From a phage, in NCBI GenBank assembly GCA_027262695.1, contig GCA_027262695.1_4722.1: a DNA stretch of 64,000 nt, one strand, 5' to 3'. The notes beneath the pieces are model-generated. The model ran no database searches and was not told the origin of the DNA. It saw only the letters and a program-made list of their open reading frames with translations. Positions 5,651-59,814 of this stretch are shown in pieces. Position 1 is the first letter of the stretch; the number at the start of each line of letters is the position of its first letter. The translations under genes were made by a program, and so were the position numbers.

Positions 5651-5684
5651 CCTCCTTCCCCGGCCTGATGGCTAGGGAAGGAGG
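5651..5684. terminator. GC-rich hairpin, CCTCCTTCCC / GGGAAGGAGG stem, at convergent gene ends
   Basis: 10-bp inverted repeat read directly; member of recurrent hairpin family. Confidence 0.5.
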
Positions 5685-5699
5685 ATTATGGTTTATTTA

Positions 5700-7487: not shown

Positions 7488-7958
7488 TTATAACACGCCC
7501 CAAGCCATATTGGGTACAGGCTCGTTACGTTCGATGTAATACATCAAGCGTTCTTTAAGTTTGGTTAACGCCTCAGCAACGATGTTCTCCATGGCAATCA
7601 CCTTTCCAATGTAATCCATGGTATCCTGCCACGTAAACCATTCGACGGTATTGACGATGTAAAGGGTTTCATCGTCGTCGGTCATGACCTTGGCATTTTC
7701 ACGATGATCGCGGGTCGCGTATAACGGTGTTTTTAGATTCGCTCTGATACGTACCCAGAGCTTCTCCAGGAAATCGCTCGGTTGACTATCTGTCGTGATG
7801 ATAAGTTCACTCCGTACTGAACGCTCTCCACGCTTTTCAATAACAAGTAAACCATCGTAAGTGATGTTCATCAAGTTACGAAGGTCATCATTGCTATTCC
7901 AGTCTTTTACAACAGCAGGAAGTTGGCTATTGTACTCTTCAGGTAATCTCTTAAGCAT
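7488..7958 (-). CDS. hypothetical protein
   Basis: 156 aa ORF, 8-nt overlap with upstream gene. Confidence 0.5.
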   Translation of the reverse strand: MLKRLPEEYNSQLPAVVKDWNSNDDLRNLMNITYDGLLVIEKRGERSVRSELIITTDSQPSDFLEKLWVRIRANLKTPLYATRDHRENAKVMTDDDETLYIVNTVEWFTWQDTMDYIGKVIAMENIVAEALTKLKERLMYYIERNEPVPNMAWGVL

Positions 7959-8403
7959 CGGTTTCTGCTCCTATATCACGTTTGAGTTCGGCGACCAGTT
8001 TGTCGTAATGGTCTTTTATCACATTCGCCATAACGAATTGCGCTTTTCTCACTAGCTGCTCATTGGCATCACTGAATGTAAAATACTCTCGCACTTCAAC
8101 CGGATGTGATACGCCACCGATATCGTAGGCTTTATTCGATGTGCGTTGAGCGATCACTGGGAGCGGTTTCGCGGCGTTCAGCGCAGTACAGATTTCCGTA
8201 ACGAGTTCTTGAATTTGGCTTTTCCCTTCGATGATAACGCTGCAACGATAAACATCCACCTCGTTAAGTTGTTCAACAACATCCGCCTTGATTTTGAATT
8301 GACCTACAAGCGCGCTTACTAAAGTGCGGTGCCAATTGTTCACCACTCCAACCAGCAATGGATGATTCTCAAGATCTCTTCTGTTCATTTCTGAGCTCCT
8401 CAA
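7951..8403 (-). CDS. hypothetical protein
   Basis: 150 aa ORF; GAGGAG RBS upstream. Confidence 0.5.
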   Translation of the reverse strand: MRSSEMNRRDLENHPLLVGVVNNWHRTLVSALVGQFKIKADVVEQLNEVDVYRCSVIIEGKSQIQELVTEICTALNAAKPLPVIAQRTSNKAYDIGGVSHPVEVREYFTFSDANEQLVRKAQFVMANVIKDHYDKLVAELKRDIGAETDA

Positions 8404-8425
8404 TCGCTCTATAACAAACTTTTAG

Positions 8426-8450
8426 AGGAAGGGAAACATATTCCCTTCCT
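8426..8450. terminator. hairpin AGGAAGGGAA-acata-TTCCCTTCCT
   Basis: 10-bp perfect inverted repeat between same-strand genes. Confidence 0.45.
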
Positions 8451-8467
8451 TGAGTTAGTTTATTGCG

Positions 8468-8743
8468 TTATACGTCTTTTCTGTGCGCGTAGAACGCCTT
8501 CGTTCCGTTGTTGATCGCCTCAACCACATCCGGGGTTAACACAACGGCGATATCGCTTCGAGATGACGGTGCGTAATACCCTTCACCGTTCTCGGTAATC
8601 AGGCGATAACGGACTAAGCCTATGTTCGGTTCAACGCGTACCACTCTTTCGAGTTTGTACTTGATGATCTTCGTCAGGCCGATAGTCTCTGATGCGTAGA
8701 TGGCTTTATAAACTTTGTTCTTTGCTGTCGTTTTCATCAACAT
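8468..8743 (-). CDS. hypothetical small protein downstream of paralog A
   Basis: Start chosen at ATG 8743 (AAGGA 10 nt upstream); ORF track extends to 8812, overlapping the upstream gene. Confidence 0.4.
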   Translation of the reverse strand: MLMKTTAKNKVYKAIYASETIGLTKIIKYKLERVVRVEPNIGLVRYRLITENGEGYYAPSSRSDIAVVLTPDVVEAINNGTKAFYAHRKDV

Positions 8744-9599
8744 GGTTTCTGTTTTCCTTGGTTTGTTGTGGTCCCAGGTCGGAGATATCCCAACGGATAT
8801 AACCAACATCACGGATTCGCTCGGCTGTTTCTTCGGATTGTGGATTACGACTGATAACCGGTAGCCATTCCCCTTCTCGGGTTATCTTAACTTCGGTGAT
8901 CTGTAAGCTCATGTTCCAACGAACGTCATAAACCAGCGCGTAACCAAGAGGATGAACAAGCCCATCTTGGTTATACATCTTCAAAAGACCTCTTACATCT
9001 TCGCTACGAAGTGATTTCATGGCTGGACGTACGCGTTGAAGTCTCTTTGTGATATCGTATCCCAACTTAATATCCTTCCAACCCGTCATGACGTAAGGAA
9101 CAACGTTGCGGCGACGGAGTTGATGGTTGTGAGTGGTTTCTTCGGCGGTAAGATGTACCCAACCGAGATCGCTGTACGCCACGAACCGCGCTCCTTCTCC
9201 ATCGAGCACTGTGTGCTCATCTAACGCTGCTGCAACACCATGGCCTGCGTAATACGACGGAAGAACGTTCAGCATTTTAATACGGCTTTCTTGACCGGTA
9301 TGGTCAGGGTCGATATGCGCGTAGTAATAATTACGGCTTACCGGACGACCTTCCGCCATACATCCACGGAAGACAGGGTCCTGCATTCCAAGCGGATGGT
9401 AATACGCGAGCTGTTGCTCGTCACCTTCCCCGATGACCAACAAACGATCTTCACGACTTGGTGTGCTAGGATCTTTCACCGTGATGTAGGTAACAATCAC
9501 TTTCAGATTGTCTAAAATGTCCTGTGGAAGTTTCTCTAAATCCCGTGCGTCGTAAATACGATTAACAACAACGTTTGCAATGTGTTTTGGTAAGCTCAT
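8706..9599 (-). CDS. hypothetical protein, tandem paralog A (YYHPxGMQ / DLGWxHL / GYxRWDISDL family)
   Basis: 297 aa; shares YYHPLGMQ, SDLGWVHL, RRNVVPYVM, HPLGY, GYIRWDISDL with the two neighbouring ORFs. Confidence 0.6.
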   Translation of the reverse strand: MSLPKHIANVVVNRIYDARDLEKLPQDILDNLKVIVTYITVKDPSTPSREDRLLVIGEGDEQQLAYYHPLGMQDPVFRGCMAEGRPVSRNYYYAHIDPDHTGQESRIKMLNVLPSYYAGHGVAAALDEHTVLDGEGARFVAYSDLGWVHLTAEETTHNHQLRRRNVVPYVMTGWKDIKLGYDITKRLQRVRPAMKSLRSEDVRGLLKMYNQDGLVHPLGYALVYDVRWNMSLQITEVKITREGEWLPVISRNPQSEETAERIRDVGYIRWDISDLGPQQTKENRNHVDENDSKEQSL

Positions 9600-9679
9600 T
9601 TTAGATCTCTCTTTGTTATCGGTAAAATAAATAACGGCATAAATGGGACATAACTGTCCCCGTGTTAAATATCAACTGT

Positions 9680-10522
9680 TCACGCTTTCAAGTCTGAAAT
9701 ATCCCAACGTACGTAACCTGTACGCTCAATGTCGTCAACCAGTCGCTCGGTTTGATTTTCAACGCCAACGACGGGCACCCAATTTAAACGCCAGCGTCCA
9801 CCGACATTAACCTCAACACGCTGCAGATCTTCATTCCAACAAACCCCATTCGGTCTCAAAAAGCCCATCGGATGGATGTAGTCCTCATCGTAATCTTTCA
9901 ATAGCGCGAGAATATCGCTTCGGCTATAAGTCTTCACGCTTGCTAGATGTACGCTTTGTAGCTTATCACGCAGACCCCAACCGTACTCACTATCACGCCA
10001 TTCAGGCATGACAACCGGCAGTACATTCCGATGACGGATGTATTTTGCCGCTTCAGCAATATCAGCTGGGAGATGTATCCAACCTAAATCGCTGTTAGCG
10101 ACAAAATCAGGACTATCCATTTCATGGATGTAACGATCGTAAAGCGTAGCAGCGAGTCCTTCAGCAAGCACGTTTGTTGGAAGGAGGCAGTTGGCGCTTA
10201 TCTTGAAATCGAATACATCGGCATCAGGATCCACGTATGCGTAAAACCCGCGCGCAAAAGCACCGCCATGCTCTTTGAAGTAGTATTGGAACACAGCGTT
10301 TTGCATTCCGATGGGGTGGTAGTAAGCCAACACACGTTGTTCGCCGTCCGTGATTTCAATGAGCCGATCTTTCGGCTTCGGCCAGGTGATCTTCTCAACA
10401 TCGCAAACGCTGACGATCTTTCGTAGATTCACCTTGATATGTTCCGGGAGATGCCCGATTTCATTTTCATGATAAACACGGGTGATGACGTGATGAATAA
10501 CAGATTGTGGTTTAGCTGTCAT
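9680..10522 (-). CDS. hypothetical protein, tandem paralog B
   Basis: 280 aa; YYHPIGMQ, SDLGWIHL, HRNVLPVVM, HPMGF, GYVRWDISDL. Confidence 0.6.
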   Translation of the reverse strand: MTAKPQSVIHHVITRVYHENEIGHLPEHIKVNLRKIVSVCDVEKITWPKPKDRLIEITDGEQRVLAYYHPIGMQNAVFQYYFKEHGGAFARGFYAYVDPDADVFDFKISANCLLPTNVLAEGLAATLYDRYIHEMDSPDFVANSDLGWIHLPADIAEAAKYIRHRNVLPVVMPEWRDSEYGWGLRDKLQSVHLASVKTYSRSDILALLKDYDEDYIHPMGFLRPNGVCWNEDLQRVEVNVGGRWRLNWVPVVGVENQTERLVDDIERTGYVRWDISDLKA

Positions 10523-10554
10523 TTGACGTCTCCTTTTCGTTTGTTGGTGATGGT

Positions 10555-10854
10555 TTAGGGTTTAGGTTCCGTTTTGTATTGTGCGAGTAATGCGTTGATC
10601 TGCTCCCGTTGTTCTTTTAAGCATGTGGGAAGCTGGTCTTCCCGTACCGTTCCGATTTCCAACGTGATGTACCAACGTTGTTCGGAAGCCTGCCATTGAA
10701 AACTGCTCTGTAACCGAAGGATGTTGGGATCGCGTACCTTGCTTGCGCTGTAGCGATCGAACCAATCCAGATAAGCGGCTTTTCCTTCCTCGTCGGCAAC
10801 GTAACGCTGCACGCTGTTCTTGCCTTTGTTCTCGTATCCCGTGATGCGGATCAT
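10555..10854 (-). CDS. hypothetical small protein coupled to paralog C
   Basis: Start at ATG 10854 forms ATGA overlap with stop of 10851-11627. Confidence 0.4.
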   Translation of the reverse strand: MIRITGYENKGKNSVQRYVADEEGKAAYLDWFDRYSASKVRDPNILRLQSSFQWQASEQRWYITLEIGTVREDQLPTCLKEQREQINALLAQYKTEPKP

Positions 10855-11627
10855 GCGAACGTTTCTCCTGTAACGTGTTGCGGATAGCGTAGCATGGTAA
10901 CATCCCATTGTACGAATCCCTGCTGTTGGAGTTGTTGCATAACCGCTTCAACGTCTTGTCCTGGATGCGCAACCGGCAACCAACGTGTATCCAGCACCTT
11001 CGCTTCAAGGCGGGCTTTGCGCTTGTTCCAACGTACCTCGCTGATCCATGCGAAGCCAAGCGGATGCACCACCTGCGGGTAATGCACGCGCAGCAGGTTC
11101 TTCATCCGGCGAAGGATTGCAAGCCTGGCGTCAAGCGCGTATGGTTTCACCTGGTTAAGCTTGCGGGTGTAATACGTTCCCACGGTTTGGTTCGCCCAAC
11201 CAGGAAGCGCATGATGGGACCCAGCCTGCAATGTATTGTCCCCGTTCGTCTTCAACCAACCGTATTGCCCTGCCGCACGTCCTTTCTCATGTTCAACTTG
11301 TACCAGCTGATCGATGAACGAAGCATCAACGATACCGTGATCCACCTCATCCAACGCATAGCGCACCACCAACCCGCTCGCGCTCATCCGTGCGGGATGC
11401 TGGCTCCGATGCGCGTACCAAACCCTATTAACATGCAGCCGAGAAGGATACGTGTGTGCGCCACGCCAAAACACTTTTCCGAGAACACGTTCTCCACAGT
11501 ACACCATCACCCCTTTGTGATCGATTAGGTAATCCAACACCTTCATGCATTCCGCTTTGATGCTATCCGGTAATGCTAAGTATTCCTCTTCGGTGAACAC
11601 GGTATCAAAAATGATTTCATCGCTCAT
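10851..11627 (-). CDS. hypothetical protein, tandem paralog C (more divergent)
   Basis: 258 aa; HPLGFAWISEVRWN and GFVQWDVTML correspond to motifs in A and B. Confidence 0.55.
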   Translation of the reverse strand: MSDEIIFDTVFTEEEYLALPDSIKAECMKVLDYLIDHKGVMVYCGERVLGKVFWRGAHTYPSRLHVNRVWYAHRSQHPARMSASGLVVRYALDEVDHGIVDASFIDQLVQVEHEKGRAAGQYGWLKTNGDNTLQAGSHHALPGWANQTVGTYYTRKLNQVKPYALDARLAILRRMKNLLRVHYPQVVHPLGFAWISEVRWNKRKARLEAKVLDTRWLPVAHPGQDVEAVMQQLQQQGFVQWDVTMLRYPQHVTGETFA

Positions 11628-11677
11628 GGATAAAGTTCCTTGTTTTCACGTTGTTTGATTAACGTATTGATTTCTGA

Positions 11678-11712
11678 TGATGATAACATCGATATGTTTG
11701 CTGTTATCAAGA
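11678..11712 (-). promoter_or_regulatory. candidate sigma70-like promoter for the minus-strand early gene array
   Basis: On minus strand TTGATA, about 17 nt spacer, then GTTATCAT about 50 nt upstream of the 11627 start; by eye only. Confidence 0.25.
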
Positions 11713-11879
11713 AGGTAATATAGCCGTGAAAGGATTTGTATTACAGAAAGGATATTTGTTTTTAAGAAGGGACGATGGTTATCAGGAAGGAGGTTATCGG
11801 TAGGTGTAGGAGAGGGGATTTCAAGGAAGGTTTAAGAGGATAGTTATGTTGTTTAGTTGAGAGTTTGCTAAAATAGCTT

Positions 11880-12070
11880 TATCGTTATCTTAGTTTATCT
11901 GTGTATTCGTTAGGTATCTTGATTTATCTTCTTAATGATCTTTTCAAAAGTGTTATCATGGTTATCTTAGGTTATGTCTTAATTGTTTTATCTTGGTATG
12001 TTTAAGTTGTTTTAAGTTATCTGTTTATCTATCTTGTTATCTTGTTTAAGTTGTTAATGGCTTATCTTCA
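11880..12070. repeat. iteron-like cluster: at least 9 copies of TTATCT plus two copies of GTTTAAGTTGTT
   Basis: Direct repeats read from sequence inside a roughly 950-bp ORF-poor AT-rich island (11628-12584). Confidence 0.55.
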
Positions 12071-12073
12071 AAA

Positions 12074-12130
12074 CAATGGATAACATGTGTTTACTACGCT
12101 CGTTGAGTTATAACTCAACGGTAACACATG
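12074..12130. repeat. nested palindrome ACATGTGTT...CGTTGAGTTATAACTCAACG...AACACATGT
   Basis: Perfect 20-bp palindrome CGTTGAGTTA/TAACTCAACG flanked by 9-bp outer inverted repeat. Confidence 0.5.
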
Positions 12131-12536
12131 TCATCTGTGCATTACACTACGTTACATGCTTATCAACGTTTTGTGAAGACAAAACGTTCAACTCTAAAAA
12201 ACCATTTGTGATACTCTTCTTCACGTTGTTCATCAGAGTATCTCGTCTATCCTCACTGCGTTCGCATACGACATCACCGTTATACGCTAACGCTACGCTT
12301 ATAGCTTATAACTCTAAGGATAAAAACATAAACTCGCTTCGCTCGTTTAGTTTTTCTTTTTCTTAGAGTTATCATGTTGCTCGTCTCTAAAGGACTTCGC
12401 TCCTCCCCCGTCCCCCGAAGGGGCCGAGGTCGTGGAAATTTTACTTTCCAAATACATTTACAACGTCTGTAAACTTTTACCGACACATACCTAATCTTAT
12501 ATTTAAAATTAGAAAAAGAGAAAATACGAACATAAC

Positions 12537-12566
12537 CCTCCTCCAACCCGGAAGGGAAGGAGGAGG
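12537..12566. terminator. hairpin CCTCCTCC-AA-CCC-GGAA-GGG-AA-GGAGGAGG (canonical family member)
   Basis: Read directly; immediately downstream of stop of 12585-13478. Confidence 0.55.
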
Positions 12567-12584
12567 TGATAACAGTCTATTTAA

Positions 12585-13478
12585 TTAATCGGAAGTGTTA
12601 TAACCGAATACTGCTTTACCGTAGGTGTGAGTACCATCACTGAGTGACAATACTAATACGTGGTTATACGCATCGTTAACACCCTTGTCGGTAGAATCGG
12701 TGGTAACACCGTTGTAGACAAAGGTAGCTGATTGCAGATTGGTTTTCAGTTCATTGATGATATCATCACTTACACCAGTCTGCTCTTTAATCAGAGTAGT
12801 CAGGTTACCTGCTAAGCTTGCGTCGAGATTTACTTCGTTGCCAGTAATAGCTTGTAAACCTGAAGCGTAAGTACTGAAGTCTAACGGATAGGTTAACAGA
12901 CGTGCTGACGTTTTGGTACCATTGCCTTCATCAACGTAGGTTAAGTTACCCAGGTTGGTAACCTTGATAATGTTAGACAGATCCAGCGTTGTGTTATAAA
13001 CTTTAACTTGAACAGAACCATACCAAGCCAACGAATCTTCTTTGGCTTCCAGGGTAACGGTTTGGATACCTGACTGATCAAAGGTAACGGGATTAGATAA
13101 CGTTTCAGCTTTGATGTCTTTTGTTTTATCCAGGAACTTCTCGCCGGAAGGCGTAACCATACCGTAGCGTTGAGCTACGAGGTCGACCACGTCACCGATG
13201 GTGGTGTTTGCTTCAACACTAACGCGCACCGCGATCTTCTGGAACCATTTAGCCAGATCCAGACGATGATAGGTGACATCGCGGGTATTGAAGTACGGTG
13301 TACCATCACCCGGACTGAGTGTTAATGTTGCTGCACTATCAGAATCGCTTTTGGATTTAAGAACGTATTTGAGATCAGTGTATTTGAAACTGGCTCCCGT
13401 ATCGGCGTTAAGCTGGTTGATCTCATCAACGATAAGTTGCCACGGTGTTTTCAAAGTAAGTGATACTCGACTTGACAT
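12585..13478 (-). CDS. putative tail/baseplate-associated structural protein, member of 4-copy paralog family
   Basis: 297 aa; shares Y-x-R-[IL]-D-L and LAW-[YT]-GSV motifs with 24541-25446, 26363-27214, 27225-28160. Confidence 0.55.
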   Translation of the reverse strand: MSSRVSLTLKTPWQLIVDEINQLNADTGASFKYTDLKYVLKSKSDSDSAATLTLSPGDGTPYFNTRDVTYHRLDLAKWFQKIAVRVSVEANTTIGDVVDLVAQRYGMVTPSGEKFLDKTKDIKAETLSNPVTFDQSGIQTVTLEAKEDSLAWYGSVQVKVYNTTLDLSNIIKVTNLGNLTYVDEGNGTKTSARLLTYPLDFSTYASGLQAITGNEVNLDASLAGNLTTLIKEQTGVSDDIINELKTNLQSATFVYNGVTTDSTDKGVNDAYNHVLVLSLSDGTHTYGKAVFGYNTSD

Positions 13479-13620
13479 TTTTTTACCTCGATGGTTGTTA
13501 CATCACTCTCAAAAGATGTAAATGTTTACAGAAAATAATATATTTTATATTTAATGTAAATGATATGGAGAACGACTCCGAATCTCCTTTTCGACCATCA
13601 AAATCAGAGGACACACAGTC
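13479..13620. promoter_or_regulatory. AT-rich divergent intergenic region, likely divergent promoters
   Basis: 142 bp between divergently oriented starts; contains TATATTTTATATTTAATG. Confidence 0.3.
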
Positions 13621-14163
13621 ATGGCCTTAGACTTTAACAAAGCAGCGAAATCCCTTCTGCTCGATCTTATCAACACCAAAGCAACTCGCACACTGACCGA
13701 AGAAGAACTGCAGTTCGGTACTCCGGGGGCATCTTCCGAACATTCTAAGAACACCGTTATTCAGCTGGATGCTGCGGATGAAGCAGAAAACCTGCAGGGT
13801 ACTCAGCAGTTCTACTACGATCGTCTGGCTCTATCTGACGTTTTCGCTGATGTAACCGGCGATGTTACTTTCGAACTGCCGCACGGTACTGAAAGCATCC
13901 AGGCTTCCGAGCTGGTAAGCAAGCTGGTCACCAAATTCGGCCTGGCTTCCCTGACCGGTGAAATCAAAGAAGAAACCTTCCAGCTGTCTGCAGGTACTGT
14001 TGGTCAGGTAACTCTGAGCGCGATCGAGAACGGTCTGGTATATACCGGCACTCTGCAGGTTGCTCTGACCTATGCAGCAGCACCGAAAGACGAACTGGCA
14101 ACCGTTCTGGCGAATAACGTAGCTGAAGGTTTCGTGAAACCTGAAGTAGCTGTCGTTGGCTAA
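13621..14163 (+). CDS. abundant small virion protein (decoration or tube-like; function not resolved)
   Basis: 180 aa ORF with strongly host-optimal codon choice (CTG, CGT, GGT, GAA, AAA) unlike neighbours. Confidence 0.55.
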   Translation: MALDFNKAAKSLLLDLINTKATRTLTEEELQFGTPGASSEHSKNTVIQLDAADEAENLQGTQQFYYDRLALSDVFADVTGDVTFELPHGTESIQASELVSKLVTKFGLASLTGEIKEETFQLSAGTVGQVTLSAIENGLVYTGTLQVALTYAAAPKDELATVLANNVAEGFVKPEVAVVG

Positions 14164-14362
14164 TAAGCACGTAGAGCAATAGTATGGGTTTTGTACAGCT
14201 CGGCTATTGCTCTTCTACAATTTGGTTGTAACAATCTGCGTGGTTGCACGCTTATCTTTCTCATTGAACGCTTCGTATGATGCGTGGTGTTGAAAGGGTT
14301 GTGGATCTCCTCAAGCGGCCAGGGACCCAGACCAACCTGAATAAACACAAACACATGTTAAG

Positions 14363-14394
14363 CCCCTCCTCATCCGTTATTGGGTGGGGAGGGG
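14363..14394. terminator. hairpin CCCCTCCTCATCC / GGGTGGGGAGGGG
   Basis: 13-bp stem with two G-U pairs at convergent ends of 13621-14163 and 14458-15093. Confidence 0.45.
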
Positions 14395-14457
14395 TCTTAT
14401 ACGTCTTTATGCGTTCCGTTCGTTCTGGAGCGTTTTAGAACGGTTTACGACAGGGTT

Positions 14458-15093
14458 TTATTCAGCACTGAAACCGTTCAAACGGATAGCTTCGTAACGT
14501 TTACGTTCACGACGTTTACGCGCCTGCCAACCGTAAATGAACTTCTCGTCTTTCTCACGACGTTCAGCTAATTCGATGTAATACATGCTCTGCATATCCA
14601 GCATCGCGTCGATAAGGTAATCTTTACCTTGCTCGCCACGTTTTGCGATATAAGCGTCCAACGCACCTAAGGTTTTAGGTCCCATCCCACCATCAGCGTC
14701 AATATCTTTCCAGTAAGTTTGACGGTTGTTCATGACGTTGAGGTAACGCTGGAGGTTCTTAACGGCAACGGATTTGCCTGCATTGATACCCAGATCAAAG
14801 AGACGGTCAGCTAAGAACACGGAACGCTTCATGACGTCATCAAGCTTCATCTTATCCCAGAAGTGGGTTTTGTAGATGAAGAACGCCATGTCGTAGGTCA
14901 GATTGCGCATATTACCATTCCAACCGAATTTCGTTTTCAGCGTGGTTTTGTATTGATCGGCGAGCGCTTTCGTAATTCCCATCATGGTTTCATTACCGCT
15001 GTCATCTGGGTCGTTGACGTATCCCGCCTCGATGTTGGTTTTATCACGAATGATGAATTCGCAGGTAAAATCTTTTTCAGTAATCTTGGTCAT
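14458..15093 (-). CDS. endolysin, GH108-type N-acetylmuramidase with C-terminal peptidoglycan-binding region
   Basis: N-terminal EAGYVNDPDDSGNETMMGIT matches GH108 signature EGGYxxDPxDxGGxTxxGIT. Confidence 0.7.
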   Translation of the reverse strand: MTKITEKDFTCEFIIRDKTNIEAGYVNDPDDSGNETMMGITKALADQYKTTLKTKFGWNGNMRNLTYDMAFFIYKTHFWDKMKLDDVMKRSVFLADRLFDLGINAGKSVAVKNLQRYLNVMNNRQTYWKDIDADGGMGPKTLGALDAYIAKRGEQGKDYLIDAMLDMQSMYYIELAERREKDEKFIYGWQARKRRERKRYEAIRLNGFSAE

Positions 15094-15195
15094 TAGAACT
15101 CCTCGTTTAGATAACGATTTAGAGGAACAGGAAGGCCCTAGAACGCGATAAACGATTTAAACCAGGCAAACCCTAGATTAAACTTTTCGAAGCGT

Positions 15196-15209
15196 TAGAA
15201 CGCGTTCTA
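15196..15209. promoter_or_regulatory. palindrome TAGAACGCGTTCTA upstream of endolysin, with additional CTAGAACGCG half-site at 15136-15145
   Basis: Read directly; located 100-130 bp upstream of the endolysin start. Confidence 0.35.
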
Positions 15210-15219
15210 GAGCGTGAAA

Positions 15220-17268
15220 TTAAATACCCTTGGTTCCTTTCACGCGGTGCGCAATTTCTTCAACCATTGCACGCAAGGCACGAAGCTGTTGGTCGTGTTC
15301 GTACCAACCGCCTAACAGAACCCCGCTATACACCATGGTGTCCAGACTTAACAGTCCTTTATCTGATACGTTGATCATTTCAGGGAACTGTTCTTGTACA
15401 CGTTGTGCGATAACACCGATCTTCTCAACATCAGGATCGTAGTCGTGACGGAAACGGGCAAGCCCGGTGTATGCCATTTCACGTAAACGATCACTGAAAG
15501 ATTCTGGATGGTCTTTCAGATAACGGATGTCGTGTTTACTACGCTCATCTGAACGGATGTATGCGTTAGGAACATCGATGTTGCTGTTGAAGTACAACGC
15601 GCTACCACCACCTGCAGAGTTACCCCAATAGAAGCTAGTAAGAATGCTACCGCCATTACCTGTAACATGCACGGTGCTTCCCACCCTCGTTCCACCGCTA
15701 CCATCAACGAAGACCAGTTTGTTTCCGCTGTAAGAACCCCAGAACAGACGACTATCGATGATGTTGGTTGCGGCGAGGCGGGCGTTACGTGGTGTAGAAT
15801 AGACGGTGTTGATATCTTGCTGCGCCTGTGCGTCAGAAGCGATACCGTAGTTCTGCACATTACCTAAACCTACTTGGGCTTTTGTAACAGCGTGAGGGTT
15901 GTCTCGACGGTTAGCGTGATTGTTAACCAGATCGCCCGCCAATTTCTGAATTGCCCAGTTGGTAGACTGTGGCGTCATGTAACGGTTAGTTGCAGAACCA
16001 CCTTGCGCCTCAGCTTGGTTAGCGGTTGGGTAGTTCTCAACGCTTCCTAACCCTACTTGTGCCTTAGACACTTGGTGCGGGTTATTCTTGTCGGCAATAT
16101 GTGCATTAAGCGGAACTAACGCGAAGGTCTCGATGGACGCTTTGGTTGTGTTCGGTGCCATTAATCGGTTAGCTGCAACCCCAGCACGTGCTTCATCCTC
16201 CGAAGCCATCGGATAGTCTTGCACATTACCTAATCCTACCTGCGCTTTGGTCACCTTGTGCGGGTTGTTGTAATCGGTTTTATGTGCGTTAAGCGGAATC
16301 AATGCGAATTGTTCAATCGCTGCAACGGTACGTAGCGGCGTCATGAATCGGTTATTCGCTGTTCCGTCCTTCGCCTCGCTATCCGAAGCGGTCGGGAAGT
16401 TATCAACGTTCCCAAGGTTAACCTGTGCTTTGGTAACGCTATGTGGGTTATCTTTACGATTAGCGTGAGCGTCGACTAGATCCCCACCCAGTTTAGCAAT
16501 CGCCCATCCAACCGTTTGTGCGGTCATGTATCGGTCAGGTGCTGTACCGGCTTCTGCCTCCGCCTTGTTTGCGGTAGGATAGTTCTGTACATTACCTAAA
16601 CCTACTTGGGCTTTTGTGGTTTCGTGCGGGTTATCGGTACGGTTAGCATGCGCGTAATGCAGATCGGTAAGGTCTTTATCCGCCGCTTGCATGTCTTTAC
16701 GTAGCTGATCGATTGCCGCCCAGAGACGGTTATCGGACGCAGCATCACCGATAAGTATTGCGGCTTTCAGCGAATAGATCGCTAAGCAAAGATGTTCGGT
16801 ACCGTAGATAGCACTAACATGGTGGATGTGTGGTTCAGGCGGATAAAGTTCCGGTTTGTTCTTGATGTCGTCCCAGTTGATCGGACGATCGTCAAGTTTG
16901 AGTTCTTCGATAGCCTGATATAACGCGTCAATAAGACTTACGTAAACACCACCGATGATACGATAGTCGTTAATTAACGTCCCCTCGATATCATCGTTGA
17001 TGATGGCGATCGCCGCACAGATTTCTTTACCTGCGTAAAGCGTCGCATCCTGATACAAGAAGATGGGTTTATAATCCACGCCTCGTACCAGTGTCTTACC
17101 GGTAAGCTTTTCAGTGATGACCAGACTTTCGGTAAAGAACGGTCCGCCATCAAGGGCGTAACATTTATTCTCGGTTCGTGGAACGGTATGCTCTTCACCA
17201 ACGATGTGGTTGCTGGCGAGTGTACCGGTCCAGTCCTCGGGGTACTTCAGGGTAATTGGTGTCGACAT
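15220..17268 (-). CDS. tail fibre protein with five NPH-x-VTKAQVGLGNV repeats and C-terminal S74-type intramolecular chaperone domain
   Basis: Repeats DNPHETTKAQVGLGNVQNY etc.; C-terminal IRSDERSKHDIRYL matches S-D-x-R-x-K auto-cleavage motif. Confidence 0.7.
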   Translation of the reverse strand: MSTPITLKYPEDWTGTLASNHIVGEEHTVPRTENKCYALDGGPFFTESLVITEKLTGKTLVRGVDYKPIFLYQDATLYAGKEICAAIAIINDDIEGTLINDYRIIGGVYVSLIDALYQAIEELKLDDRPINWDDIKNKPELYPPEPHIHHVSAIYGTEHLCLAIYSLKAAILIGDAASDNRLWAAIDQLRKDMQAADKDLTDLHYAHANRTDNPHETTKAQVGLGNVQNYPTANKAEAEAGTAPDRYMTAQTVGWAIAKLGGDLVDAHANRKDNPHSVTKAQVNLGNVDNFPTASDSEAKDGTANNRFMTPLRTVAAIEQFALIPLNAHKTDYNNPHKVTKAQVGLGNVQDYPMASEDEARAGVAANRLMAPNTTKASIETFALVPLNAHIADKNNPHQVSKAQVGLGSVENYPTANQAEAQGGSATNRYMTPQSTNWAIQKLAGDLVNNHANRRDNPHAVTKAQVGLGNVQNYGIASDAQAQQDINTVYSTPRNARLAATNIIDSRLFWGSYSGNKLVFVDGSGGTRVGSTVHVTGNGGSILTSFYWGNSAGGGSALYFNSNIDVPNAYIRSDERSKHDIRYLKDHPESFSDRLREMAYTGLARFRHDYDPDVEKIGVIAQRVQEQFPEMINVSDKGLLSLDTMVYSGVLLGGWYEHDQQLRALRAMVEEIAHRVKGTKGI

Positions 17269-24484: not shown

Positions 24485-24499
24485 ACACGGCAAACATAA

Positions 24500-24531
24500 C
24501 CCTCCTCCAACCCATCAGGGAAGGAGGAGGG
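24500..24531. terminator. hairpin CCCTCCTCC-AA-CCC-ATCA-GGG-AA-GGAGGAGGG
   Basis: Family member at convergent gene ends. Confidence 0.55.
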
Positions 24532-30658: not shown

Positions 30659-33577
30659 ATGAACGATATAAATAAAGGGCGCGTCGCCCTCGAACGTCAA
30701 ATGAGCAATAATGACGTTGCGAAGGCACTCATGAACAAATTTGTCGCTCCTGCTCCGCAGTCACGTCTTTATAACACACGTGAAGCGGAAGGAGCGAGCG
30801 GTCGTTTCGGGTTAGTTGTTCCCGACCAGATGACGATGAACACGGTGACGCGTGCGACCGCAACAAACGTCGAGGATAATAAAAACATCCTCGAGTTGTT
30901 CCCTGAACTTAAACGCGTGATGCAGATCTATGTTGCCGCGTTGACGAACCCTAACGATCTTAAGACGGTCGAGATGTTCATCGACAGCGAAGATTTCCCC
31001 GGCAGAGTCGCAGAAATCGTTCAGCCGATGATCGATACCATCGACACGCATTTTAAGAATATCTATAAAATAAAGACGCTTATCCCTCGTATCATCGAAG
31101 ATGTCTTCTTTATCAAGGGCAGCTATAACTTCGTTGTTCTGCCTGAAAGCACGCTCGATCGTGCTATTAACGGCAACGGCCAACTGAAACTCGAAGAATA
31201 CGGATTTAAAAACAATCATTTCGCCAGCTGGGGGCTGCTGGGGAATGACAGCCGTATACGCAGTCAACATCAGTTACCGACAACGGTTTCGATGGAAGAT
31301 TATTTTTCAGGCGTTAACGAAACCATCCCGTACGATCCGGTTGTCCGTATCGATAGCATCAAGTTTACCAACACGATGCTCCGTGATAAAGACGGTAAAT
31401 TCATTGAAGCGAAGGTCGATATTCCGGATATGGTTACGGTTGTTGATAACCCAGACATCCTTCGCATGCCGATTTTACACCAACGTCGTGCGTCAACAGC
31501 CGTGCAACGTGCATTACGTGCAAACACCTTAGGCGGTAACGGCCTGGTGACGTTATCAGGCGATCCGACGCAAACCGCGAATCGACGTGAGCTGACACAA
31601 GAGCAAGTTAATGAGATCTGGAATAAACTAAACATCCAACGTCATACCAAGGTATCGCCTGTGTACGCACTAGCAACCCCGGATACCCTTGACCGTCAAA
31701 GTGTCGGTCATCCTGGTGTGATGCACGTACCACCTGAGTCATTAGAACCGGTTCATGCGCCTGGCGATCCAGAGAACCATATCGGTTATCTCGTCCAGCT
31801 GGATGAATTCGGTTACCCAGTACGTTTGGTTGAAGATGCTGCGTATTACAAACAGCTGGAAGGTCGACTGTCGAAGATCACGGCGGATATTGCCGGTACA
31901 TCAAGCAACGGAATGGCGAGTGAGATGATCGGGGCAGCGAAGAACATGGTTCAAGGTACGTCGTGTAACCAAGTCGATATGTCAGCGTTTGTCTCGTCGT
32001 ACGAATCACTGATGCAACGTTATATCGTTGAACGTATCGTTAACGGTTACCTCGGCAGTGCGGTAGAAATCGGTGCAACGTCGTCGTTCTATCTGTCGAT
32101 GCTTGCCCGCAGTCTTGCTCACAAGCAAACCCGTGTTTTGTTTATTCCTCGTGAGATGGTGACATACATCGCCTACGAATACAACAAATACGGGATTGGA
32201 CGTTCCTTGCTTGAAAGTACGAAGATGATCTCTTCGCAACGCGCGATGCTCATGGTTCAGGAACTGATGGCGAAAATCAAAAGTTCGTTGAACTATACGA
32301 CGCTGAGCGTGATGCTCGAAGACACCGATAGAAACCCGGTTGATACCGTTGAGCAGGCATTGCACAGTTTTGCTCGTGTTTATCAATCTGGTTTCCCGTT
32401 GGGTGAAACCAACCCAATGGATATCATCAATGCATACGAACGAAGCTCGATTCGATTGAAGGTTGAAGGGAACAACCCACGCTTCCCGAAACTGAACACC
32501 GACGTTAGCGTTGAACAACGTAACTACCAATCCCCGGATGATGAGCTGATGGATCGTTACCGTCGTGATCATTTCATGGGTCTGGGTGTTTCTCCAGAGA
32601 TCGTTGATACGTCCTATCAATCTGAATTCGCGGCGTCGGTGATTACGGCTAACGCGATGCAAGAGAAACAGTTCACGGTTTGTCGTGAGGTCGTCACGAA
32701 TGGCTTAACTGATCACATCAAGAAGTATACGGCTTACAGTCCTGTGCTTCTGACGTCGTTACGCAATACCGTTCGCGCGAATATGTCAAAGCTCTCTCAA
32801 GCGCAGCTGCAACAGCTCTTTGGTAGCGACTTCGAAAACGGTGTTATTCGTAACGTGAACGCGTATCAGGAGATTGATGATCGATCGGTGACAATGGATC
32901 TGGATTACACCAAACCGGAAGTCCAGGAAGTGATTGCCGACGCTTATGTCTCCATGTTCTTAAACAGCTTGCAGGTACGTTTACCGGATAGCAACGCGCG
33001 TCGCCTTGAAGATCAGGTACGTGAATATAATCAGTACAAGGAAGCGATTACAGCACAACTTGATGATTATTTAACACCGGATTATGTCATGGGTCTGGGT
33101 GGGGTCGATGAAACAACCCTGCAGATGATTCGAGCGTGCATCATTGGTACGGCGATGAGGACATGGGCGAAAGAAAACAACTTCAATCAGGAGCTGGCTG
33201 ATCTCTTTAGTCTCGACGATAAGAAGAATGCCGTCCAGGATTGGAAACGTGCATCCATGGAGCATATTGAAATCATGGGTAAATGCATGGGTGATTTCGC
33301 ACTCTATATCCAAAACCTGACGAAGCAAATCGAAGAGAAGATGGGCGACCAAGCACAAGACGGTAGCGTTTCATCTGACGGCTCATGGTCATCGGATTCC
33401 GGTTCGGATAGCGGTTCTTCCGATGATTTCGGTGGTGGTGATGACTTTGGTGGCGACGACGATTTCGGAATGGAAGAAACCGAAGAATCCACCGAGGAAA
33501 CCACTACGGAAGAAACAACCGATGAAACTGGTGATAATGCCGCATCAGAAGACGATACCGCAGGTGATATTGTCTAA
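30659..33577 (+). CDS. portal-like protein with acidic low-complexity C-terminal tail (call from size and context only)
   Basis: 972 aa; AGGAG RBS 9 nt upstream; C-terminal DDFGGGDDFGGDDDFGMEETEESTEE. Confidence 0.35.
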   Translation: MNDINKGRVALERQMSNNDVAKALMNKFVAPAPQSRLYNTREAEGASGRFGLVVPDQMTMNTVTRATATNVEDNKNILELFPELKRVMQIYVAALTNPNDLKTVEMFIDSEDFPGRVAEIVQPMIDTIDTHFKNIYKIKTLIPRIIEDVFFIKGSYNFVVLPESTLDRAINGNGQLKLEEYGFKNNHFASWGLLGNDSRIRSQHQLPTTVSMEDYFSGVNETIPYDPVVRIDSIKFTNTMLRDKDGKFIEAKVDIPDMVTVVDNPDILRMPILHQRRASTAVQRALRANTLGGNGLVTLSGDPTQTANRRELTQEQVNEIWNKLNIQRHTKVSPVYALATPDTLDRQSVGHPGVMHVPPESLEPVHAPGDPENHIGYLVQLDEFGYPVRLVEDAAYYKQLEGRLSKITADIAGTSSNGMASEMIGAAKNMVQGTSCNQVDMSAFVSSYESLMQRYIVERIVNGYLGSAVEIGATSSFYLSMLARSLAHKQTRVLFIPREMVTYIAYEYNKYGIGRSLLESTKMISSQRAMLMVQELMAKIKSSLNYTTLSVMLEDTDRNPVDTVEQALHSFARVYQSGFPLGETNPMDIINAYERSSIRLKVEGNNPRFPKLNTDVSVEQRNYQSPDDELMDRYRRDHFMGLGVSPEIVDTSYQSEFAASVITANAMQEKQFTVCREVVTNGLTDHIKKYTAYSPVLLTSLRNTVRANMSKLSQAQLQQLFGSDFENGVIRNVNAYQEIDDRSVTMDLDYTKPEVQEVIADAYVSMFLNSLQVRLPDSNARRLEDQVREYNQYKEAITAQLDDYLTPDYVMGLGGVDETTLQMIRACIIGTAMRTWAKENNFNQELADLFSLDDKKNAVQDWKRASMEHIEIMGKCMGDFALYIQNLTKQIEEKMGDQAQDGSVSSDGSWSSDSGSDSGSSDDFGGGDDFGGDDDFGMEETEESTEETTTEETTDETGDNAASEDDTAGDIV

Positions 33578-42397: not shown

Positions 42398-42546
42398 TGA
42401 AAGTATCCTTTACAGATTTAACTTATATAAGTCGGTCGATAGACCATAGCGTACACGCGTGCATGCGCCACTATAGTATCAGTAAACACTTACCGTTATT
42501 GAGGTTGTGATACAACACTAAAAATGCCGCATAACTTTTCCCTACG
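42398..42546 (-). promoter_or_regulatory. upstream region of putative capsid gene with TTATATAAGT motif
   Basis: Minus-strand TTATATAAGT about 25 nt upstream of start; late-promoter-like by analogy only. Confidence 0.25.
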
Positions 42547-44843: not shown

Positions 44844-44874
44844 CCCTCCTCCAACCCGGAAGGGAAGGAGGAGG
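44844..44874. terminator. hairpin CCCTCCTCC-AA-CCC-GGAA-GGG-AA-GGAGGAGGG, preceded by A11 run
   Basis: Canonical copy; A-run 44823-44833 gives a U-run after the hairpin for minus-strand transcripts. Confidence 0.6.
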
Positions 44875-44892
44875 GTTATGACCGTTATGGTG

Positions 44893-45219
44893 TTAACTTA
44901 TCGTCATGAATTCCGTAGGTGAGAATTTCCAACCGTTTTCATTGAGAAGCGTGTTAAGTTTCGCTGCAACGATAAGCCATGCGTGCATGGCTGTCACATC
45001 GTATTGGCGATTAACACGGCGTTGGTTTTCGATATCGATTTGCTCCCGTTCGGTGATGTTTGGGTAGAGCGCGACGGCGCTGGGCTTCCCTAACGCATCA
45101 CTCATTACCGCCTGACATTCACTGATGATGTTATTGAGATGATAATTGTAAACCGTTCCACGCATAACACGATGACGGCATTCAATAATAGCGTCGTAAA
45201 TAATTTCTCTTGTTGTCAT
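44893..45219 (-). CDS. hypothetical protein
   Basis: 108 aa ORF. Confidence 0.45.
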   Translation of the reverse strand: MTTREIIYDAIIECRHRVMRGTVYNYHLNNIISECQAVMSDALGKPSAVALYPNITEREQIDIENQRRVNRQYDVTAMHAWLIVAAKLNTLLNENGWKFSPTEFMTIS

Positions 45220-48460: not shown

Positions 48461-48544
48461 TGATTATAGCTCCAGGTTATTATCACTAAGGTAATATAGT
48501 CGTGAAATAAACTGGAGTAATAGAAATAATAAGACGGCATAAGA

Positions 48545-59667: not shown

Positions 59668-59782
59668 TTAGGACTCCTACGTAGGAAAGATCATGGTGGG
59701 TGATCATGTCCACCATTGTGCGTGGTATGAAGCGTGGCTTCATACCCAAGTCAAAAGATAACCGGTCATCAACACCATAAAA

Positions 59783-59814
59783 CCCTCCTCCAACCCATTA
59801 GGGAAGGAGGAGGG
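59783..59814. terminator. hairpin CCCTCCTCC-AA-CCC-ATTA-GGG-AA-GGAGGAGGG
   Basis: Family member between same-strand genes. Confidence 0.55.

Follow-up and report, generated by a model that had tools for sequence, protein, structure and literature searches.

A near-invariant non-coding core and a canonical early promoter within a composite intergenic region of Goslar-like jumbo phages

Genomic setting

The window analysed here, a 64,000-nucleotide stretch of phage DNA, comes from a relative of the Escherichia coli jumbo phage Goslar (Chimalliviridae), to which it gives an 84% megablast match. Between the start codon of an ORF at 10851..11627 and the stop codon of an ORF at 12585..13478 lies a gap of 957 bp. 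Because both bordering genes are on the minus strand, the gap runs from a terminator to a promoter and is not divergent. Its GC content is 35.6% (47.1% across the whole window). No other internal stretch of at least 300 bp lacks an ORF of at least 90 aa, and the only other such ORF-free stretch of at least 200 bp is 14164-14457 (294 bp). A sequence-only reading of the window had described a non-coding, AT-rich island of about 950 bp as its only long ORF-poor stretch. That description stood, and a conserved protein-coding gene across the gap, which would have spoken against it, was not found among relatives.

The same gap, also without annotation, is present in Goslar (14972-15825) and in 20 other Goslar-like genomes. 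A search of the region with ARAGORN found no tRNA or tmRNA, and sigma-70 promoters were no more numerous there than in shuffled sequence. In the papers searched, nothing was found on this locus or on Goslar transcripts from it. Most of what is known of the Goslar-like clade comes from persistent infections in isolates of E. coli, Salmonella and Shigella. The features assigned to the gap are as follows.

11628..11711, minus strand: 5' UTR of the ORF at 10851..11627, read directly from the sequence and conserved in relatives
11712..11730, minus strand: Goslar-type early (virion RNA polymerase) promoter TTCACGGCTATATTACCTT of a leftward accessory-gene operon, assigned by motif recurrence
11735..11850, minus strand: CCTTC(C/T)TGAWAA repeats (repeat family D3), partial copies of the 3' half of the early promoter (ACCTTCTTGATAAC)
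11880..12070, minus strand: array of AAGATAA(C/A) motifs (TTATCT on the plus strand; the AAGATAAC array) with two copies of AACAACTTAAAC, defined by repeat counts
12079..12135, minus strand: long AU-rich hairpin with a variable tip, followed by UUGUUUUG, found as inverted repeats
12165..12188, minus strand: optional perfect 10-bp hairpin AACGTTTTGT/ACAAAACGTT, found as an inverted repeat
12196..12480, minus strand: near-invariant non-coding core, a candidate structured ncRNA of about 285 nt, delimited by diversity profile and folding
12466..12480, minus strand: 15-mer GTAAAAGTTTACAGA, a near-palindrome (GTAAA-N2-TTTAC) at the 5' edge of the core, found by recurrence
12537..12566, minus strand: intrinsic-type terminator hairpin of the DUF7941 virion gene (12585..13478), from a terminator scan and an inverted repeat

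The gap is a single-copy intergenic module of a Goslar-like chimallivirus, read on the minus (gene) strand, and constitutes a composite control region that combines a conserved non-coding core, a fast-changing repeat array and a typical early promoter. The analysis shows that the module starts with the terminator of the upstream virion gene and finishes with a canonical early promoter and the 5' UTR of a hypervariable accessory operon. In the outgroup L011 (50% identity), which lacks the core and the array, the terminator lies only about 20 nt from the early promoter; core and array thus form a discrete inserted module.

Terminator and early promoter

At the upstream end, the terminator scan matched 12555-12536, where a GC-rich hairpin after the gene is followed by a U-rich tract. 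The hairpin, CCTCCTTCCC...GGGAAGGAGG, occurs five times in the window and matches an annotated Goslar terminator. Next on the minus strand comes TTATG (TATG at 12534->12531), which also follows 8 of the 18 annotated Goslar terminators, in agreement with the TATG core of phiKZ late promoters (PMC7598289).

At the downstream end, the sequence TTCACGRCTATATTACCTT has two exact copies in the window (11712-11730 and 48488-48506), compared with 0.05 expected. Twelve copies of the consensus TTTCACGRCTAYATTACYT were found in Goslar, all on the gene strand and one of them upstream of chimallin, and the motif is present in every relative checked as well as in L011. The conserved AT-rich motif of about 10 nt near -10 that marks chimallivirus early promoters was found, within the gap, at 11712-11730 only and not in the TTATCT repeats. 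Judged by these motif features, 11712-11730 on the minus strand is a genuine early-promoter copy, located outside the TTATCT zone. It resembles the early promoters of phiKZ-like jumbo phages in its conserved AT-rich element around -10 (here CTATATTAC), its T-rich upstream part, its orientation on the gene strand and its position upstream of early operons, including that of chimallin (PMC7598289, PMC8244752). The gap differs from those systems in that this is its one full copy, whereas the TTATCT/AAGATAA and CCTTCC repeats correspond to the initiator-proximal half without the -10 element. In the 5' UTR between promoter and ORF, a 5' hairpin (TGATAAC...GTTATCA), a second and conserved hairpin (ACGTT...AACGT) and the Shine-Dalgarno sequence AAGGA can be recognised.

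The partial copies begin within the promoter itself, where the first member of family D3 (GTTATCAAGAAGG / GTTTTTAAGAAGG / GTTATCAGGAAGG) falls. AGGAAGG units at 11784 and 11824 and GAAAGGAT units at 11728 and 11746 were located to the left of the array, as the earlier reading had noted. Relative to Goslar, the repeat zone at 11735..11850 of the window has a 29-bp extra unit, and conserved blocks are visible in it among relatives.

The repeat array and the palindrome

TTATCT occurs nine times within 11885-12067, every copy on the plus strand, and 43 times in the whole window on both strands; 2000 dinucleotide-preserving shuffles of the same 191 bp gave a mean of 0.79 and a maximum of 5. The claim of at least nine copies at irregular spacing (10, 29, 38, 26, 29, 8, 12 and 25 bp) was thus borne out, on one strand and above chance, and the array shows the enrichment over shuffled sequence on which the earlier reading had staked its case. 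The two copies of GTTTAAGTTGTT that it had reported were located at 12000 and 12044; the window has no others. The zone at 11880-12070 has a GC content of 26.2% (74% A+T), and its minus strand is A-rich and G-poor. In Goslar, no other part of the 237-kb genome is as dense in TTATCT as the cluster of the gap (6 per 200 bp, with at most 2 for the reverse motif), and the AAGATAAC array is the single such cluster in that genome. AGATAA is present in 4-9 copies in each of the 13 of 16 genomes in which both anchor motifs were found; its number, order and spacing differ between close relatives, and the spacer in these 13 genomes measures 269-472 bp. The AAGATAA array was also considered as an RNA structure and rejected as unstructured (MFE of -18.2 kcal/mol for 341 nt; z +0.9).

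Beyond the array, a perfect 20-bp palindrome at 12101-12120 forms the tip of a hairpin whose arms (12079-12091 and 12123-12135) are 92% complementary, confirming the nested palindrome with a perfect core that had been read from the letters. Its stem is kept in 16 of 17 genomes with four different tips, and the 20-bp palindromic tip is found in only three of the 17 (the window, L025 and L026); L005 has lost the hairpin altogether. The hairpin may act as a terminator or insulator. The optional hairpin at 12165..12188 is present in the window, L013, L019 and L021; Goslar and others have unrelated sequence in its place.

A pac site recognised by terminase is suggested in generic terms only, by the presence of palindromes and of short repeats on one strand in non-coding, single-copy DNA. 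The gene for the Goslar terminase large subunit lies at 189.5-191.8 kb, about 175 kb away; the ends of short-read contigs near the locus are accounted for by a 31-nt terminator repeat, and the ends of long contigs lie several kb away and are not common to different assemblies. Nothing was thus found in favour of this function, one of those proposed from the sequence, and we regard it as extremely unlikely.

A replication origin, in which the AAGATAAC array would be an iteron-like cluster of initiator-binding sites within a 74% A+T unwinding region and the core would supply single-stranded DNA initiation signals or a structured pre-primer transcript, can draw on more of these observations. As in the iteron origins of lambda, P1 and RSF1010 (oriV), the repeats form a single-copy, same-orientation, AT-rich cluster near palindromes and a gene of unknown function, and the adjacent region is far richer in A+T than the window (26.2% versus 47.1% GC). 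The motif, however, measures 6-8 bp and not 17-22 bp, and phased iterons of 17-22 bp do not vary between close relatives in copy number and order as this array, with its fluid spacing of 8-38 bp, does. No initiator, helix-turn-helix or helicase signature was recognised in the adjacent gene, about whose function the searches were uninformative: its product had no match in Pfam or PHROGs, the AF2 model was poor (pLDDT 57), and Foldseek against the PDB returned nothing at E<=0.001. GC skew, proposed as a check for an origin, gave no signal, with no inflection near 12 kb in the window or 15 kb in Goslar (extremes at about 1 kb and 214 kb), although this is a weak test because phage skew follows transcription. 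The nearest outgroup, moreover, is without the whole module.

Conservation and coding potential of the core

The high identity of the core to its Goslar equivalent (15432-15717) was not accepted by itself as proof of constraint, because the two genomes form a recombination mosaic with many blocks at 99-100% identity; a diversity profile across 16 genomes was used instead. Nucleotide diversity (pi) in these genomes was 0.002-0.03 over 12300-12480 and 0.05-0.07 over 12190-12300; the corresponding ranges were 0.06-0.32 for the DUF7941 gene, 0.13-0.46 for the left gene and 0.07-0.41 for the remainder of the gap. Core diversity is 10-50 times below that of the flanking genes. Among 21 genomes, about 15 columns of the core vary, and its identity is 95-98%, as against 77-89% for their flanking gene. 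The edges of the core are sharp in the profile and coincide with the shared 15-mer motif and the U-run, and the core is single-copy in the 237-kb Goslar genome.

Uniformity of this kind could also arise if the core were a recombination anchor with no function of its own, kept homogeneous by frequent homologous exchange at the edge of a hypervariable accessory cassette; the PeSL boundary elements of T4-type phages offer a parallel. The DNA to the left of the gap (about 7.5-11.6 kb of the window) is indeed mostly unalignable to Goslar or just 66-89% identical, and core haplotypes are mosaic (L015 and L031 mix window-type and L013-type sites), as is the genome pair overall. Yet both sides of the core within the gap are as diverse as coding DNA, with sharp edges at the shared motif and the U-run, and exchange alone would leave unexplained both the base-pair-preserving changes described below and the retention of the module at 270-470 bp in compact genomes. 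We consider such an anchor very unlikely.

No long ORF is conserved in the core, the 96-aa and 88-aa ORFs being specific to the window, and nothing in the gap combines a conserved frame and length with a coding substitution pattern. The sole conserved ORF encodes 36 aa (12347..12457, minus strand, MYLESKISTTSAPSGDGGGAKSFRDEQHDNSKKKKN). None of the 12 distinct core variants disrupts it, and it overlaps the least diverse stretch, as expected if the microprotein were the conserved product. This explanation is highly improbable, however, since the ORF has no Shine-Dalgarno sequence and its start codon lies within hairpin H1, three of its four substitutions are nonsynonymous (one synonymous), and conservation runs about 170 nt past it on the 3' side.

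A scan of 10500-14000 against Rfam 15 returned just a chance snoRNA match outside the core, and a scan of 12050-12560 at E<=10 gave three sub-threshold chance matches (11-18 bits, against gathering thresholds of 42-90). The segment GGGGGAGGAGCGAAGUCC, which we took to resemble RNase P CR-I, was rejected as such when no RNase P model scored even at E<=10. Neither 5,426 E. coli genomes nor phages besides Goslar gave a match to the core, and a two-block pattern scan of IMG/VR for distant homologues recovered Goslar-like contigs only, plus one chance match (L010). In the protein database, the identity range from 77% down to 54% contained no lineage represented by long contigs. No extended complementarity to the core was found elsewhere in the phage, and its duplex with the gp021 5' UTR was no better than with shuffled sequence. 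By these comparisons, the core appears to be a previously undescribed element.

Predicted structure of the core

The predicted fold of the core comprises about eight hairpins, whose main elements on the minus strand are listed below.

12456-12474, minus strand: H1, predicted hairpin
12433-12450, minus strand: H2, predicted hairpin
12406-12429, minus strand: H3, predicted hairpin with a cUUCGg loop
12390-12405, minus strand: H4, predicted hairpin
12308-12372, minus strand: H5, predicted long hairpin with a GCGAAGC tip
12292-12298, minus strand: predicted GCGUAGC mini-hairpin
12255-12261, minus strand: predicted covarying GNA mini-hairpin, with compensatory changes
12210-12242, minus strand: H7, predicted hairpin
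12196-12201, minus strand: U-run, from the sequence

As RNA, the minus strand reaches an MFE of -87.7 kcal/mol (z -5.0) and the plus strand -68.4 kcal/mol, with z about -5 for both. RNAalifold predicted 84 pairs, two of them with compensatory changes; because 72 of the 84 never vary, the fold remains mostly a prediction. Pairing is held in 99.5% of cells, versus 36-53% with the partners slid, and all pairing-preserving stem changes are G.U wobbles or compensatory on the minus strand: UA>UG at columns 30-42, CG<>UG at 73-94 and 74-93, and, in the GNA mini-hairpin, AU/GC/GU at 241-247 and CG/UA at 242-246. Covariation is confined to these two base pairs of one mini-hairpin, and the inclusion of four more genomes did not extend it. 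Only on the minus strand do the cUUCGg and G-N-A loops have the right sequence. Together with the diversity profile, these data show that the core is under very strong purifying selection, is non-coding and folds best as the minus strand.

The GNA mini-hairpins deserve separate comment, as they bear on the possibility of an origin. The core contains two-base-pair stems closing G-N-A loops in which the N position varies freely: GCGAAGC at columns 159-165, GCG(U/A)AGC at 204-210, and ACGCAGU, AUGCAAU, GCGAAGC or GCGCAGU at 241-247. Phage G4 and RSF1010 (ssiA/ssiB) carry GCGAAGC-type mini-hairpins as single-stranded DNA initiation signals. The core likewise has GCGAAGC, GCG(U/A)AGC, GCGAAGU and covarying NN-GNA-NN elements all on one strand, in keeping with the GCGNAGC sites of the G4 origin, RSF1010 ssiA and the N4 virion-RNAP promoter P1 (GTTGCGAAGCAAC) and with a GNA motif that allows a free N position (PMC13037366, PMC12633501). 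The minus strand also folds significantly as single-stranded DNA (z -4.8), as an origin read in this form would have it. Strict GC-stem GNA hairpins are, however, not enriched in the core over the Goslar genome; with no significance genome-wide, they are kept as a descriptive feature only, and priming is an analogy. The cUUCGg loop, furthermore, stabilises RNA and not DNA. Weighing these points with those from the array, we regard an origin as doubtful, though it would suit the single-copy status of both repeat cluster and core and the long-term persistent infections from which Goslar-like phages are mostly known (10.1101/2024.12.31.630880).

The resemblance to N4 does not extend to a DNA-hairpin promoter of its type. 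The N4 polymerase is a single-subunit enzyme, whereas chimalliviruses use multisubunit enzymes, and Goslar-like phages encode split multisubunit beta/beta' polymerases; the core hairpins are not placed upstream of a gene, and the actual early promoter of the gap is linear and AT-rich. At the other end of the core, the U-run lies 8 nt past the last stem, too far for a canonical intrinsic terminator, and it does not resemble the terminators of the phage itself.

The 15-mer at the 5' edge

The 15-mer GTAAAAGTTTACAGA belongs to a recurring motif. In Goslar, GTAARNGTTTACWG occurs five times, always in intergenic positions: at the edge of the core, upstream of gp023 (by 90 nt), of the major head protein gene (by 82 nt) and of chimallin, and at 176758. 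The window has three copies, at 12480 (minus strand), 13518 (plus strand) and 42493 (minus strand). Upstream of gp023, GTAAnnnTTTACAG is conserved though its flanks diverge. The core's copy is without the upstream element ATCACNNCTCAAWAA of the other copies, and four GTAAA half-sites fall within the first 45 nt of the core. From its recurrence, the 15-mer is a candidate middle or late promoter or regulator site; phiKZ chimallin carries both early and middle promoters (PMC8244752). It could also be a protein operator rather than a promoter.

Extended to the whole module, the operator idea becomes one of purely DNA-level control, with core and array held by phage DNA-binding proteins (as operators, an enhancer or a late/early insulator) that govern the early promoter or the shift away from it, and with no functional RNA. 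The half-sites, the recurrence of the palindromic 15-mer upstream of regulated genes, and the sequence shared by the repeats and the initiator half of the promoter would all suit it. The loops are as invariant as the stems, which fits protein contacts along double-stranded DNA; such near-total invariance is atypical for structured RNAs and would suit a DNA site equally well. Duplex recognition nevertheless predicts neither substitutions that keep pairing on one strand nor a strong strand asymmetry in folding energy, a near-invariant tract of 285 nt goes far beyond what known operators need, and other Goslar early promoters have no upstream module like the core and array. Control at the DNA level alone is, on this evidence, decidedly unlikely.

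Discussion

Four functions had been proposed for the gap by the sequence-only reading: a replication origin, a packaging site, an early promoter or operator cluster, and a small non-coding RNA locus. The early promoter and the non-coding RNA gained support, but outside the zones to which that reading had pointed. The TTATCT array and the palindrome, which it had stressed, are the least constrained parts of the gap.

We put about an even chance on the core being a new stand-alone structured ncRNA of the minus strand. Such an RNA would be made in middle or late infection by the phage non-virion RNA polymerase. Its 5' end would lie at the GTAAAAGTTTACAGA element that the major-capsid, chimallin and gp023 genes also have, or immediately beyond it, or else at the TATG behind the upstream terminator; the 3' end would fall at the conserved U-run or at the AU-rich hairpin and UUGUUUUG slightly further on. 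The invariance of its loops and linkers suggests that the core works through binding partners, either proteins or other RNAs, and not through its shape alone. Between this RNA and the downstream promoter, the optional hairpins would serve as insulators. The repeats of both kinds, AAGATAAC and CCTTCYTGA, may be incomplete copies of the early promoter's initiator half that are prone to slippage; they would be kept because the polymerase or a regulator binds them as clustered sites on one strand, or because they provide spacing upstream of the promoter.

Stable structured ncRNAs are known from phages, the species 1 and 2 RNAs of T4 being examples. Among large lytic phages, ncRNAs have been reported for PA5oct and phiKZ (PMC7318152, PMC13282480), and the core resembles them as a discrete, hairpin-rich, non-coding unit on the gene strand, conserved in the genus and set between a terminator and the next promoter. 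As a candidate RNA, it differs in lacking sequence or covariance-model similarity to any Rfam family and in an unusual invariance that includes loops and linkers.

A bolder reading, which we consider unlikely, would see in the module a cis-acting locus for replication or maintenance, the first to be defined in a nucleus-forming jumbo phage. Initiation would be primed or nucleated next to the fluid AAGATAAC array by the invariant, hairpin-rich transcript of the minus strand, or by the same sequence as single-stranded DNA. The single-copy status of core and array fits this reading, under which the module may be linked to the long-term persistent infections of Goslar-like phages. ColE1 RNA II and the promoter-dependent origins of T4 and T7 provide models of structured pre-primer transcripts. 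The module shares with them a promoter-like element, a multi-hairpin transcript of about 300 nt and an AT-rich region, and Goslar encodes an RNase H-like protein; the likeness is wholly inferential. Since the downstream RNA would be A-rich and G-poor, conditions would be unfavourable for a stable R-loop, in contrast to a ColE1-type origin.

Chimalliviruses transcribe their genes inside a protein-walled phage nucleus, apart from translation. To our knowledge, both the RNA biology and the replication origin of this family are poorly known; the papers searched describe no Chimalliviridae origin, and the phiKZ ncRNAs in them are only unvalidated or unexplained. Against this background, the Goslar-like phages offer a 285-nt element with precise bounds, whose conservation far exceeds that of its neighbour genes in every genome sampled. 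Its sharp bounds, its conservation and the clear predictions for strand and structure make it an easy, well-defined experimental target. Three working Goslar-type motifs also emerge, namely the early promoter, the motif shared by the capsid, chimallin and gp023 genes, and the terminator-TTATG pairing, and these could improve annotation across the clade.

Location and content of the gap

The gene-free gap at window positions 11628-12584 (957 bp) has a GC content of 35.6%, compared with 47.1% window-wide, and is the sole internal stretch of at least 300 bp in the window to be devoid of ORFs of 90 aa or more. In a search of 50,697 phage records, the span and its flanks matched Escherichia phage vB_EcoM_Goslar (~84% identity) and no other entry; Goslar is a jumbo phage that forms a nucleus and belongs to the Chimalliviridae. 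The equivalent Goslar gap (14972-15825) is unannotated, with gp021 (hypothetical) on one side and gp022 (virion structural protein) on the other. Elsewhere in Goslar, and outside the window, the second-largest unannotated gap (82469-83289, 820 bp; 32469-33289 of locus L003) immediately follows gp068, a DNA polymerase fragment, and gp069, a NUMOD1/HNH endonuclease, and is thus probably intron-related. Because both genes flanking the window gap are on the minus strand, it separates the 3' end of one from the 5' end of the other and is read on that strand.

Features of the gap and its flanks (window positions)
10851..11627, minus strand, left flanking gene, no known family
11712-11730, minus strand, putative early promoter TTCACGGCTATATTACCTT, full motif copy
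11880-12070, array of TTATCT (plus) or AGATAA (minus) repeats
12079-12135, big hairpin
12196-12480, minus strand, core, candidate structured ncRNA
12535-12566, terminator hairpin
12585..13478, minus strand, DUF7941 virion protein gene

All features listed in the sequence-only reading were recovered. TTATCT occurs nine times in 11885-12067, on one strand only, against a mean of 0.79 and a maximum of 5 in 2000 dinucleotide shuffles of the same 191 bp; the counterpart cluster ranks highest in TTATCT density across the whole 237 kb of Goslar. Both window copies of GTTTAAGTTGTT fall in the gap, and a perfect 20-bp palindrome (12101-12120) sits inside 13-nt arms.

Diversity among Goslar-like genomes

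Homologous gaps were gathered from Goslar, two IMG/VR contigs, and 18 more Goslar-like contigs (ENA, NCBI, and Logan assemblies), located via the flanking DUF7941 protein, whose gene shares 77-89% nucleotide identity with the window copy. Most relatives (L012-L037) were present in E. coli, Salmonella, or Shigella isolate assemblies or in metagenomes rather than in phage isolates, in agreement with a preprint in which 59/60 Goslar-like genomes derived from persistently infected bacterial isolates (10.1101/2024.12.31.630880). Window and Goslar form a recombination mosaic (mean identity 89%, with many 99-100% blocks), so identity to Goslar alone is little proof; the decisive measure was a diversity (Pi) profile of 16 genomes.

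Diversity (Pi) in 16 genomes
Left gene: 0.13-0.46
Gap 11730-12190 (many indels): 0.07-0.41
Core 12190-12300: 0.05-0.07
Core 12300-12480: 0.002-0.03
Gap 12500-12584: 0.15-0.26
DUF7941 gene: 0.06-0.32

The low-diversity valley is sharply bounded, with GTAAAAGTTTACAGA at its 5' edge (12480) and a run of 5-9 U at its 3' edge (12196-12201). The conspicuous array and palindrome are the least constrained parts: relatives carry four to nine AGATAA copies in differing unit order, with a spacer of 269 to 472 bp, and the big hairpin comes with any of four tips. The window, L025, and L026 alone have the perfect palindrome as the tip, and a single genome, L005, has no such hairpin at all. A role as a pac site is among the less likely explanations.

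Left of the early promoter, the accessory-gene array (window ~7500-11600, compared with Goslar 11.2-15.0 kb) is hypervariable. The leading gene of this operon shares just 40-98% identity among Goslar-like phages, and the 280-aa (9680..10522) and 297-aa (8706..9599) window ORFs have no Goslar counterpart and no Pfam or PHROGs family. That the core is a recombination anchor at the edge of this cassette is likewise less likely.

Predicted fold of the core

Folding models indicate that the core folds on the minus strand, where its minimum free energy as RNA is -87.7 kcal/mol, compared with -68.4 on the plus strand; z is ~ -5 against shuffles of either strand. The RNAalifold consensus of 12 distinct variants contains 84 pairs in a chain of about eight hairpins. 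Paired cells amount to 99.5%, dropping to 36-53% once the partners are shifted by 1-3 columns, a control that favours the structure because the latter was derived from the same sequences; pairs are broken in five cells. Variation is scarce (72 pairs are invariant), and in so shallow a clade near-invariance limits all comparative tests. Three varying pairs form wobbles valid on the minus strand only (30-42, UA to UG; 73-94 and 74-93, CG/UG swaps), and covariation support amounts to two fully covarying base pairs, both in one 2-bp mini-hairpin (ACGCAGU, AUGCAAU, GCGAAGC, or GCGCAGU). This mini-hairpin and three others (GCGAAGC, GCG(U/A)AGC, and GCGAAGU) are G-N-A triloops with N free to vary, and a cUUCGg tetraloop caps another hairpin; only on the minus strand do such motifs read correctly. 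A DNA-only regulatory role is considered less likely. No Rfam family matched the core, even at E<=10, and no counterpart was found in E. coli genomes or elsewhere in the phage.

Core hairpin H7 and the gp021 5' UTR have an identical minus-strand 11-mer, AACAACGTGAA, which lies within the 17-nt loop of H7 (12220-12230), itself invariant, and immediately ahead of the Shine-Dalgarno sequence in the UTR (11645-11655). The two copies might bind the same protein, although the sharing is not significant alone (chance ~0.1) and Goslar shares only 8 nt.

The core does not encode a protein. A conserved gene across the gap would have spoken against the non-coding view; the 96-aa and 88-aa window ORFs are absent from Goslar, and a 36-aa ORF in the core, though intact in all variants, has several points against it. 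It lacks a ribosome-binding site and starts within a hairpin, three of its four substitutions are nonsynonymous and one is synonymous, and conservation runs ~170 nt beyond its stop codon. A microprotein is thus less likely.

Signals flanking the core

Upstream, the end of the DUF7941 gene is marked by a hairpin of the family CCTCCTTCCC...GGGAAGGAGG (variable loop), annotated as terminators in Goslar and present five times in the window (5651-5685, 12535-12566, 24499-24530, 44861-44893, and 59782-59815). Two copies are identical over 31 nt, which explains why short-read contigs L016, L018, and L020 break ~45 bp past the DUF7941 gene. TTATG(C/T) follows within ~10 nt of 8/18 annotated Goslar terminators (e.g., 3508, 27746, 55080, 93445, 132985, 176545, 180588, and 232609), including that of the DUF7941 gene (window equivalent 12531-12566). 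As TATG is the core of phiKZ late promoters (PMC7598289), this arrangement suggests coupled terminator/promoter or RNA-processing junctions.

The near-palindromic 15-mer GTAARNGTTTACWGA lies between genes at window 12466-12480(-), 13518-13532(+), and 42479-42493(-), and only between genes in Goslar (15717, 16758, 45757, 173098, and 176758). In Goslar, GTAAAAGTTTACAGA, the 15 nt with which the conserved block opens, is seen again 90 nt ahead of gp023 (virion protein), 82 nt ahead of the gene for the major head protein, upstream of chimallin on the far side of its early promoter, and at a fourth site. ATCACNNCTCAAWAA, just upstream of the 15-mer, is common to the three gene-associated copies, and GTAAnnnTTTACAG is kept upstream of gp023 despite diverging flanks. 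phiKZ chimallin has an early and a middle promoter (PMC8244752). We infer that the 15-mer may serve as a middle/late promoter or a regulator site, and that the core may form a transcription unit of its own. GTTTACA of the 15-mer can pair with the preceding GTAAA or the downstream TGTAAAT, giving two alternative hairpins from three arms, both at the core edge (12456-12480(-)) and upstream of gp023 (13518-13570(+)).

Downstream, TTCACGGCTATATTACCTT has a second window copy at 48488-48506(-), two against 0.05 expected. Its Goslar consensus, a T-rich stretch followed by TTTCACGRCTAYATTACYTNNGTGA, is unannotated in that record, where it occurs 12 times, always on the dominant gene strand and once directly upstream of the chimallin (nuclear-shell) gene.

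Goslar copies of the early-promoter motif (record positions)
2568, 15068, 49733, 86706, 113798, 142801
160792, 166070, 172979, 187640, 201945, 226696

The motif was found in all relatives checked and in the outgroup, and fits published jumbo-phage early promoters read by virion RNA polymerase (PMC7598289, PMC8244752); promoter and regulator assignments here are motif-based and hence putative. The CCTTCC/GAAAGGAT units at 11735-11850 (repeat family D3) are partial copies of the promoter 3' half ACCTTCTTGATAAC, of which AAGATAAC units have only the last part in common. As RNA, the array, whose minus strand is 53% A and 10% G, showed no structure (z +0.9).

Possible origin or control region

The main rival, a replication origin, has a low but appreciable probability. 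Core and array are both single-copy, the array is AT-rich with repeats on one strand, and the core shares GCGAAGC-type mini-hairpins with the G4 and RSF1010 initiation sites and an N4 promoter (PMC13037366, PMC12633501). However, the repeats lack the length and geometry of iterons and have been arranged fluidly in evolution, nothing in the adjacent gene points to an initiator, and GC skew gave no signal. We favour reading the gap as a composite control region and consider it an even call that its core is a new structured ncRNA. The module is missing in its entirety from the closest outgroup, L011, whose DUF7941 protein is 50% identical: in its 101-kb contig (Logan SRR33371455, 4883-5256), the terminator is followed after ~20 nt by the early promoter CACGGCTACATTACCT and a small hydrophobic (membrane) ORF, directly after which lie thymidylate kinase, RuvC, and SbcC-like genes. 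With terminator and early promoter so close there, core and array together constitute a discrete module of the Goslar-like clade only.
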